The notes beneath the pieces are model-generated. The model saw only the letters and a list, made by a program, of their open reading frames with translations. It was not told the DNA's origin and ran no database searches. The translations under genes and the position numbers were made by a program. Below are positions 56,641-57,424 of a stretch of DNA of 64,000 nt, piece by piece; position 1 is the stretch's first letter, and the number at the start of each line of letters is the position of its first letter. The DNA lies in NCBI GenBank assembly GCA_043803385.1, contig JAZDKA010000034.1, forward strand, positions 10,561 through 74,560. The letters are read 5' to 3'. The DNA is from Patescibacteria group bacterium (GTDB taxonomy: Bacteria; Patescibacteriota; Minisyncoccia; Moranbacterales; JAKLHP01).

Positions 56641-57424
56641 CTATCGAGGTTGAACCTCGATAGTTTGATAGTAAATTATTCTAAAGAAAATTCTTTAATT
56701 TCTTCAAATCTTGTTTCTTTATCTTCTTTTAACAGTCTTTCGATTTCTTCTTTATAACCTTTTTCTCCGCCAAAAAATCCAAGATATTGCTCTCTTAATG
56801 TAATTGATGGAAAGTTTTTACGTCCAATATAATCTAGATAGCTACTCCATCTATAATTTTCCAGAAACTCCATCTTATTCTCCAATCCTATCGAGGTTCG
56901 ACCTCGATAGTCAATTAAATCTAGAGAGTTTAGATGAATATATGATGGAAGATGTATGAAATGTGCTTCTTTTTCAATTAAAACAGCTTTAAACTTTCCT
57001 TGAAATAAACTTCCAACTCTTTCATATTTTTTATTGAAATACATCGTATATCCAGTTCCCAATTTTTGCATGAATTTTATTATTCCATTTTTTTCACATT
57101 GCTTTATTATAAAATGAAAGTGGTTTGGCATAAGCGTAAAAGCCAATATCTCAACTAATAATTTTCTCGGAGGTCTATTGTATCGAGGTCGAACCTCGAT
57201 AGTTTTTTGATTTTTTAGGTAGTTAAAATTATTTGCTACTGGATTCCTATCATTAAACTCAAACATATCATGAACAAATCTAAAATAATCCTTATTATTC
57301 ATAAATGTTTTTCTTTTTTCTACGCCTCTATTGTATACGTGGTAAATCTGGTTTTCTATAAATTGTGGTTTTTTCATGTAGCTTAATTATAGCAAAAATA
57401 TCTATCGAGGTCGAACCTCGATAG
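56641..57424 (-). mobile_element. REP-RAYT unit: an IS200-like Y1 transposase bracketed by inverted REP palindromes
   Basis: 22-23-bp palindromes at 56641-56663, 56888-56910, 57181-57202 and 57402-57424 surround and interrupt ORF 56676-57377. Confidence 0.7.
56676..57377 (-). CDS. REP-associated tyrosine transposase (RAYT; IS200/IS605 TnpA-like HUH enzyme)
   Basis: YHVYNRG N-terminal motif, HUH (NHFHFII), Tyr region, and the RAYT C-terminal signature YIHLN...YRWSSY. Confidence 0.75.
   Translation of the reverse strand: MKKPQFIENQIYHVYNRGVEKRKTFMNNKDYFRFVHDMFEFNDRNPVANNFNYLKNQKTIEVRPRYNRPPRKLLVEILAFTLMPNHFHFIIKQCEKNGIIKFMQKLGTGYTMYFNKKYERVGSLFQGKFKAVLIEKEAHFIHLPSYIHLNSLDLIDYRGRTSIGLENKMEFLENYRWSSYLDYIGRKNFPSITLREQYLGFFGGEKGYKEEIERLLKEDKETRFEEIKEFSLE

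Follow-up and report, generated by a model that had tools for sequence, protein, structure and literature searches.

The window analysed here is a stretch of 64,000 nucleotides (nt) from a Patescibacteria group bacterium (assembly GCA_043803385.1, contig JAZDKA010000034.1, positions 10,561 to 74,560 of the forward strand), a member of the Candidate Phyla Radiation (CPR). It carries an intact gene for a Y1/HUH enzyme that resembles the transposases associated with repetitive extragenic palindromic sequences (REPs), the REP-associated tyrosine transposases (RAYTs). The gene is accompanied by copies of one short palindrome, of which one lies upstream (U), one downstream (D) and two, S1 and S2, within the open reading frame (ORF) itself. 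This analysis concerns the relation of the enzyme to these palindromes, in the window and in related genomes. The features of the locus are collected in Table 1.

The RAYT gene and its palindromes

The protein matches the Pfam profile Y1_Tnp (PF01797) with an E value of 5e-9 and 36.7 bits against a cut-off of 23, and it has the HUH motif and the one conserved tyrosine of the Y1/HUH superfamily. The four motifs from which the original prediction had recognised a RAYT are all confirmed at this ORF. By analogy with the Y1 transposase family, Y146 is presumed to be the catalytic tyrosine. An identical (100%) protein from a Patescibacteria metagenome-assembled genome (MAG) is on record as 'transposase [Patescibacteria group bacterium]', and homologues of similar length number in the thousands. 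An AlphaFold (AF2) model, built from 35 close homologues and of moderate quality (predicted local distance difference test, pLDDT, 60), has a beta-alpha-beta-beta(HUH)-alpha core. Its best fold matches in the PDB are all Y1 transposases, namely ISDra2, IS608 and the E. coli TnpA_REP (4er8). S1 and S2 fall within the lowest-confidence segments of the model, residues 48-67 and 146-163.

The palindrome, CTATCGAGG-N5-CCTCGATAG, is 23 nt long, one more than originally reported, and forms an effective 10-bp stem with a 3-nt loop; the hairpin sequence in the window is CTATCGAGGTTCGACCTCGATAG. Five matches occur in the window against 0.01 expected from shuffles, which rules out chance palindromes, and in DNA folding every copy forms a stable hairpin (z-scores of -2.4 to -7.1). 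The flanking copies are where the original prediction had placed them, although 12 and 24 nt from the ORF and not 13 and 25. The internal copies are indeed in-frame, but S1 starts at 57180 instead of 57181; the fifth copy, which is extragenic, had been missed. S1 and S2 are one palindrome translated in two different frames: the codons of S1 are ATC GAG GTT CGA CCT CGA TAC (IEVRPRY) and those of S2 are TAT CGA GGT CGA ACC TCG ATA (YRGRTSI). The sole mismatch of S1 is its outermost base, TAG to TAC, and the full palindrome would put a TAG stop in the S1 frame.

U overlaps the best promoter-like match of the window's gene. Among the related loci, which like all related sequences used here come from MAGs or metagenome contigs, a -10-like box is found at -18 to -5 of the ATG in 34 of 62, as compared with 5-7 of about 61 in control windows, and its spacing to the ATG peaks at 6-8 nt. 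This spacing suggests leaderless mRNAs for the RAYT family. With a leaderless start, U is not transcribed as part of the gene, which speaks for a role at the DNA level of at least this copy. On the gene strand, U and D are both called terminator-like; so is U on the opposite strand, and S1 on the + strand, where a T-run follows it.

In the closest relative (locus L081), the gene is 79% identical at the amino acid (aa) level and occupies the same position, divergent from ligA. LigA itself is only 70% identical between the two loci, so the RAYT is the better conserved of the neighbours. L081 has all four palindrome copies; its U, S2 and D have the same arms as in the window, the S1 arm differs at two outer bases, and the hairpin loops differ. 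The synonymous divergence (dS) is approximately 1.0, with a dN/dS of 0.108. Within the hairpins, 14 of 15 third codon positions are unchanged between the two loci, as compared with 142 of 217 elsewhere. Judged from these comparisons, the RAYT gene is neither decaying nor recently mobile.

Table 1. Coordinates of the RAYT gene, its palindrome copies and neighbouring features in the window
Feature	Position	Strand	Remarks
RAYT-like Y1/HUH gene	56676-57377	-	233 aa, intact ORF
YHVYNRG motif	aa 12-18
HFHFII motif	aa 86-91		bears HUH
HUH codons H86-F87-H88	57114-57122	-	H86 and H88 invariant in 35-homologue alignment
M112 codon (GTGYT-M-YFN)	57042-57044	-	co-varies with stem base pair 4
YIHLN motif	aa 146-150
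Y146 codon	56940-56942	-	presumed catalytic tyrosine; invariant in 35-homologue alignment
YRWSSY motif	aa 175-180
U, upstream palindrome	57402-57424		12-bp stem at 57400-57426; 24 nt 5' of ATG
S1, internal palindrome	57180-57202		in-frame as T-IEVRPRY, aa 59-66
S2, internal palindrome	56888-56910		in-frame as YRGRTSI, aa 157-163
D, downstream palindrome	56641-56663		12 nt past stop; terminator-like on gene strand
Dispersed extragenic palindrome	53203-53225		2 outer mismatches; 7 nt past stop of ORF 52786-53196
Promoter-like site	57386-57414	-	best match of the scan, 10/12 positions
-35 box TCGACC	57409-57414	-	within U hairpin; 17-nt spacer to -10
TG-extended -10 box TATAAT	57386-57391	-	8 nt before ATG, leaderless-type
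Intrinsic terminator	53248-53276		G+C-rich, ordinary
Two ORFs beginning like type IV pilins	55343-56604		adjacent to each other
ligA	57465-59612	+
Palindrome in ligA	58217-58250		34 nt, in-frame; 14-bp stem

Internal hairpins and their enzyme across the family

The family was represented by 80 related loci from species-representative genomes, nearly all of them CPR MAGs, and the ORF is intact in all 80. Together with the purifying selection seen against L081, this disposes of the earlier suggestion that the window holds a decaying copy. A scan for perfect palindromes that was blind to their sequence revealed a common architecture in most of the loci, with U 20-110 nt upstream and S1 at about +150 to +210 of the ORF. 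S2 is present in a subset, at about +450 to +495. D lies 2-45 nt past the stop or itself provides the stop codon, and some homologues end in ...EVEPR, their coding sequence running into the downstream hairpin. In an alignment of 35 homologues (60-79% identity) both internal sites are conserved, as xEVxPxY (S1) and Y(R/G)GSTSI (S2). An identifiable repeated palindrome was obtained from 60 of the 80 loci, to which all S1 and S2 counts refer: 33 have S1 only, 11 S2 only, 9 both and 7 neither. S1 is thus found in 42 loci, at equivalent codons, and S2 in about 20. On a family tree built without the hairpin segments, S1 is scattered over the whole family, and S2 is found mainly in the window's clade. 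Several members of this clade have lost S1, and those retain S2.

The occupation of the same codons in relatives does not agree with the proposal that the internal copies are recent self-insertions. Neither does their length. The original prediction had S2 lengthening the spacer between the HLN and YxWSS motifs; the median distance from N150 (HLN) to W177 (YRWSS) is in fact 24.5 aa where the S2 hairpin is present and 28 aa where it is absent, and relatives that lack S2 have a slightly longer PEWRxxxIKNYKEAxK at its position. The S1 region has a median length of 33 aa with the hairpin and 32.5 aa without. By these alignments, the long HLN-YxWSS spacer is a family trait and not a product of the palindrome.

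The palindrome varies widely from locus to locus, with stem cores such as GAGGTT, GAAGTC, GGAGTT, GACATC, GCAACC, GCTGTC, GATTTC and GAGACT. In most of the 80 loci, however, U, S1, S2 and D share the locus-specific version. With palindromes detected by symmetry alone, within-locus identity is 0.82 between S1 and U and 0.88 between S1 and D, as compared with 0.52-0.56 between loci; none of 2000 permutations reached the within-locus values. When the S1 copies of 41 loci are aligned without gaps, two-sided changes are found in 11 of 12 stem pairs (128 cells). Of the alignment cells, 90% are paired; with a slid partner this falls to 31-44%, and none of 500 shuffles attained the values seen. The S1 peptide differs accordingly from genome to genome (IEVRPRY, SYEVEPRK, LYEAKPRK, SLEVGLPK). 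Since the double changes alter the peptide, the constraint acts on the nucleic-acid stem and not on the protein. The original prediction had regarded alignment of the internal copies to conserved RAYT residues as a sign that they are not insertions. They do align in this manner, but the residues are themselves encoded by the hairpin and co-vary with each genome's palindrome, which makes the internal copies true REP copies, ancient and continuously homogenised. The symmetry of each copy runs 3-5 nt past the conserved core in copy-specific sequence. As to whether the hairpins might be recombination joints between the three gene modules that they delimit, pairwise identities of the modules correlate poorly (r of 0.15-0.28), but the modules are too short and their range of identities too narrow for this to count for or against such joints.

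Many copies adjoin a direct duplication of one arm together with 4-7 nt of flank, for example ...CCTCGATAGacta-ACCTCGATAGacta. Such arm duplications were observed before or after the palindrome in L117, L122, L157, L158, L177, L129 and L175, and also at the RAYT loci L004, L007, L019, L022, L025, L032, L041, L069, L070 and L072. They may be the footprint of a process that makes or resolves hairpins.

A mutual-information screen of protein columns against variable stem positions, with the hairpin-encoded segments left out, singled out residue 112 (GTGYT-[M/N]-YFN), on the long helix that follows the HUH strand. This residue predicts stem base 4, with 1.2 bits of mutual information against a permutation maximum of 0.62. 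Met is paired with G in 28 loci, Asn with A in 22 and Lys with C in 3, so that the rule is followed in 53 of 58. On a quick neighbor-joining (NJ) tree built without residue 112, the residue and the stem base each change at least 18-21 times (22 for the joint character), with at least 18 coincident switches. All 9 sister pairs with unlike residues at position 112 also have unlike stem bases, in agreement with the rule. An independent set of the 120 closest homologues, for which only protein was used, agrees: the S2 peptide has Gly (GGT) in 59 homologues with Met-112 and Ser (AGT) in 42 with Asn-112, with 3 exceptions. In these sequences one enzyme residue predicts another that is 45 residues away, apparently via the DNA hairpin. 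Residues 128 (R/K) and 104 (Q or R/K) track the loop-proximal pair more weakly. A signal between residues 48-51 and stem positions 7-9 was set aside, as it comes from a gappy region beside S1 and a single clade. In E. coli TnpA_REP, DNA is bound by helix alpha3, which follows the HUH motif and touches the stem of the REP; co-evolution of enzyme groups and their REPs is described as well (PMC8266576). That residue 112 tracks stem base 4 over many independent switches points to a direct readout of the hairpin.

Some MAGs have 2-3 divergent paralogues of the gene, whose identity to the protein of the window is about 50-60% in each case; paralogues within one MAG have different palindromes. On some CPR contigs two Y1_Tnp paralogues are located about 1.4 kb apart (L083/L084, 3317-4015 and 5446-6201; L207, 15976-16683), and in MAG JACOYX01 they are on separate contigs. 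Family members are also included in bins labelled Nitrospiraceae, Gammaproteobacteria, Planctomycetia, Spirochaetia, Omnitrophota, Gastranaerophilales and Aenigmatarchaeota (L008, L010, L018, L019, L020, L036, L047, L053, L059, L061 and L067). Wrong binning of CPR contigs or horizontal transfer could account for them.

Dispersed and coding copies in other genes

The palindrome is not confined to the RAYT locus, as the original prediction requires. Besides the dispersed copy in the window, the flanks of the 80 loci contain 31 further copies in 710 kb, and the window's exact palindrome has at least 139 copies on at least 120 metagenome contigs. Among the matches listed, 108 of the 139 exact copies are away from any RAYT homologue, and of these 108 solitary copies 18% lie in open frames of at least 450 nt, as compared with 69% of random positions. 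The palindrome is a genuine, low-copy and mainly extragenic repeat.

At least 19 dispersed copies are nevertheless in-frame in long ORFs, where they are translated as YRGSTSI or LSRLNLD. The host genes that could be assigned by Pfam encode CysRS, UvrA, a CopA-type ATPase, YchF, a Mur-ligase-family protein, a SpoU methylase, GT4 glycosyltransferases and an EamA transporter (contigs L096, L158, L162, L127/L167, L187, L191, L147, L160 and L132). The copy in CopA takes up 10 aa between PVDG and ESMISGE, where a solved homologue also has 10 aa. UvrA has 23 aa between anchors with the hairpin and 22-23 aa otherwise, SpoU gains 1 aa and YchF none; the hairpin region of CysRS is variable in length and uninformative. 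These alignments indicate that the hairpin-encoded residues in CopA, UvrA, SpoU and YchF replace native ones and are not inserts. Two YchF orthologues (70% aa identity) carry different REP variants at equivalent codons, CTATCGAGG... and CACTGCTATGGAGGTTCAACCTCCATAGCAGTG, which shows that coding copies in housekeeping genes also follow the variant of their genome. The YchF REPs are located at 6629 of L167 (CTATCGAGG...) and at 5059-5091 of L206 (CTATGGAGG...), and in L207, a third relative, a degenerate GGAGGTTCAACCTCC is located close by. YchF carries a REP in 2-3 of 22 relatives, a sporadic distribution.

Interpretation and related systems

Taken together, we consider it probable, with moderate confidence, that the locus represents a REP-RAYT system of the Patescibacteria whose cognate hairpins have become fixed within the gene of the enzyme and are maintained in uniform sequence throughout the genome. 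The ORF would encode a functional, vertically inherited Y1/HUH enzyme, catalysis being expected from its family. This enzyme would recognise the perfect palindrome of its genome in a sequence-specific manner, as the co-variation suggests, with residue 112 reading stem base pair 4. Its hairpins would sit over the -35 box of its own promoter, just past the end of its gene and at one or two constant sites within the ORF, with further copies dispersed mostly between genes and occasionally in-frame in other genes. The internal copies would then be old, length-neutral REP copies, and all copies of a genome, the coding ones included, would stay identical to the recognised sequence. Homogenisation would most likely proceed through cleavage and rejoining of single-stranded hairpins by the enzyme, or through short-tract conversion between copies; either route would overwrite a site in place without insertion. 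U probably serves autoregulation through its position over the promoter, and the flanking copies probably insulate the gene through transcription termination. In-place replacement is the simplest mechanism for coding copies that, like these, are length-neutral, occupy one site across orthologues and follow the variant of their surroundings; classical insertion fits them less well.

Several observations weigh against this interpretation. The NCBIfam equivalog for REP transposases (NF047646, REP_Tyr_transpos) scores 34.3 bits, below its cut-off of 80. PDB sequence searches with the protein and with the family profile retrieved no solved Y1 transposase and missed 4er8 even at an E value of 10, so the link to these structures comes from the fold search and not from sequence search. 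No GTAG/GTGG guide tetranucleotide is found 5' of the hairpin foot in the consensus of 212 copies, AAYCT-WTN-GARGTY-n-RACYTC-NAW-AGRTT. REPs typically number hundreds per genome, and a density of about 1 per 23 kb is low by that norm. Given the pLDDT of the model, the placement of S1 and S2 in variable or low-confidence loops bracketing the catalytic core is tentative. The NJ tree behind the switch counts is poorly resolved. Ordinary gene conversion or template-switch self-correction of palindromes could maintain the stems. Finally, at least one internal copy is present in 53 of 60 loci (about 88%), which hints at a gene-specific function that passenger copies would not explain.

The last point gives weight to the view that the internal hairpins serve the RAYT gene itself, whether as operators or loading sites, as mRNA hairpins that throttle a potentially dangerous nuclease, or as antisense or read-through terminators. 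Persistence of the internal copies makes this a serious rival, one we consider possible although on balance somewhat unlikely. S1 is kept in 42 of 60 loci of a family whose divergence reaches about 47% identity, S2 remains in those of its clade that lost S1, and just 7 of 60 loci have no internal copy; REPs in YchF are by contrast sporadic. S1 and S2 moreover bracket the catalytic core, S1 has its terminator-like T-run on the + strand, and an apparently leaderless mRNA has no 5' untranslated region for such a signal. On the other hand, the palindrome also lies in-frame in unrelated housekeeping genes, so that a RAYT-specific role is not needed to account for coding copies, and those same 7 loci manage without an internal one. 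Nothing favours an RNA structure either: stem mismatches show no bias for G:T over A:C on the sense strand, albeit in small numbers. In a bolder extension of the REP-RAYT reading, the hairpin would be both spread and homogenised by a domesticated HUH enzyme through length-neutral replacement, not insertion, of cassettes of about 21-35 nt. Short peptides of host proteins (CopA, UvrA, YchF, SpoU and others), two loops of the enzyme included, would thereby be rewritten continually, while a residue-112 code (M/N/K to G/A/C) sets the variant of the genome. In this complete form the scheme is speculative, and we regard it as rather unlikely.

The remaining explanations are much less probable. An ordinary mobile insertion sequence of the IS200/IS605 type, with U and D as subterminal end hairpins, would account for hairpins within about 50 nt of both ends of a Y1 transposase gene and for the 2-3 paralogous copies in some MAGs. 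It is improbable because the position divergent from ligA is conserved in L081 while the RAYT is better conserved than LigA, because paralogues of the same MAG are distant and have different hairpins, and because no identical multi-copy elements were seen. U and D are also the same perfect palindrome and not distinct imperfect left-end and right-end hairpins, there is no tnpB, and most of the exact palindrome copies listed are solitary and far from any RAYT. Recent in-frame self-insertion of REPs, or a decaying copy that is still open, would agree with exact, in-frame copies and with an HLN-YxWSS spacer longer than in classical RAYTs. In view of the codons shared family-wide, a spacer that is no longer with the hairpin than without, the 80 intact ORFs, the low dN/dS and the four copies in L081, this is very improbable. 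Hardly credible at all is that the internal matches are a by-product of protein motifs (YRGSTSI, EVxPRY) whose codons form a palindrome by coincidence. The peptides are indeed conserved in the closest homologues; however, the same DNA is read in two frames, the peptides switch wholesale with the local palindrome, pairing is kept by double substitutions that alter amino acids, and third codon positions in the hairpins are frozen relative to the rest of the gene.

Closest to the locus among described systems are the REP-RAYT systems (REPtrons; TnpA_REP), above all the group with perfect palindromes (Nunvar 2010; Bertels and Rainey 2011, PMC3116915; Ton-Hoang 2012; Corneloup 2021, PMC8266576; Bertels 2017, PMC5581495). 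The locus shares with them a Y1/HUH enzyme with the HUH motif, one tyrosine and a C-terminal motif of the YxxxN...WSS type. Its gene is flanked on both sides by a cognate palindrome, in the window and in most of the 80 related loci, and the palindrome is dispersed and mostly extragenic. The gene is present in one or a few copies per genome, vertically inherited and under purifying selection. Enzyme and hairpin co-evolve, each paralogue having its own hairpin. The original assignment as a RAYT-like gene with flanking cognate palindromes is thus supported. Unlike the described systems, this family lacks the GTAG/GTGG tag, falls short of the equivalog cut-off and of a sequence match to 4er8, has tens of copies per genome and not hundreds, and belongs to the CPR/Patescibacteria, for which our literature searches found no report of a RAYT or REP. 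Its hairpin is at fixed sites inside the RAYT ORF, in two reading frames, whereas in earlier work REPs at RAYT genes only flank the gene or overlap its ends (PMC3733652). The upstream copy, further, overlaps a leaderless-type promoter.

The TnpA proteins of the IS200/IS605 family (IS608, ISDra2) are similar in that they are among the best structural matches, have hairpins near both gene ends and, by analogy, would lead one to expect single-stranded DNA hairpin chemistry here. They differ in that our unit has no signs of movement and no tnpB, carries identical perfect palindromes at both ends, and is greatly outnumbered by solitary hairpins. Intragenic REPs and Rickettsia palindromic elements (RPEs) are also known and have been described as insertions (Ogata 2000; Di Nocera 2013, PMC3733652; review PMC10969869). 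They likewise place in-frame palindromes in functional genes, including the DNA-repair gene uvrA, where they are tolerated in loops. RPEs and the described intragenic REPs, however, add about 10-50 residues. Here, wherever the alignment is informative (five cases: CopA, UvrA, SpoU, YchF and RAYT S1/S2), a palindrome of 21-35 nt stands in place of native residues and does not make the protein longer by its own length. Moreover, one host gene here is that of the enzyme itself, and coding copies track the REP variant of their genome.

How REPs are recognised, spread and kept uniform is an acknowledged open problem. The family is a source of natural enzyme/hairpin pairs, numbering in the hundreds, whose specificity obeys a clear rule that links residue 112 to stem base 4. 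Because its hairpins are locked in coding sequence, each change is visible against the reading frame, which exposes both concerted evolution and an apparently length-neutral colonisation. It also extends REP-RAYT biology to the CPR, whose genomes are small and in which the repeat visibly edits essential proteins. For annotation, a conserved-looking peptide of a CPR protein, such as YRGSTSI or EVEPRY, may turn out to be a translated REP.

Other features near the gene bear on its surroundings. The extragenic REP copy of the window is followed about 20 nt beyond by an ordinary G+C-rich intrinsic terminator, so this REP is probably not the terminator of that operon. Two adjacent ORFs located upstream of the RAYT gene begin like type IV pilins (e.g., ...GGFSFIEVIIAVFIFVLIM); the corresponding neighbour in L081 has no detectable similarity to them, which indicates that this side of the locus is not conserved. 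On the other side, ligA holds an in-frame palindrome of its own, AGGAGCTAAGCTCCTTTCAGGGAGCTTAGCTCCT. Its sequence is unrelated to the RAYT palindrome and unique within the window. It forms a 10-aa insertion that is absent from the syntenic orthologue in L081 and, unlike the REP copies, is a true insertion.

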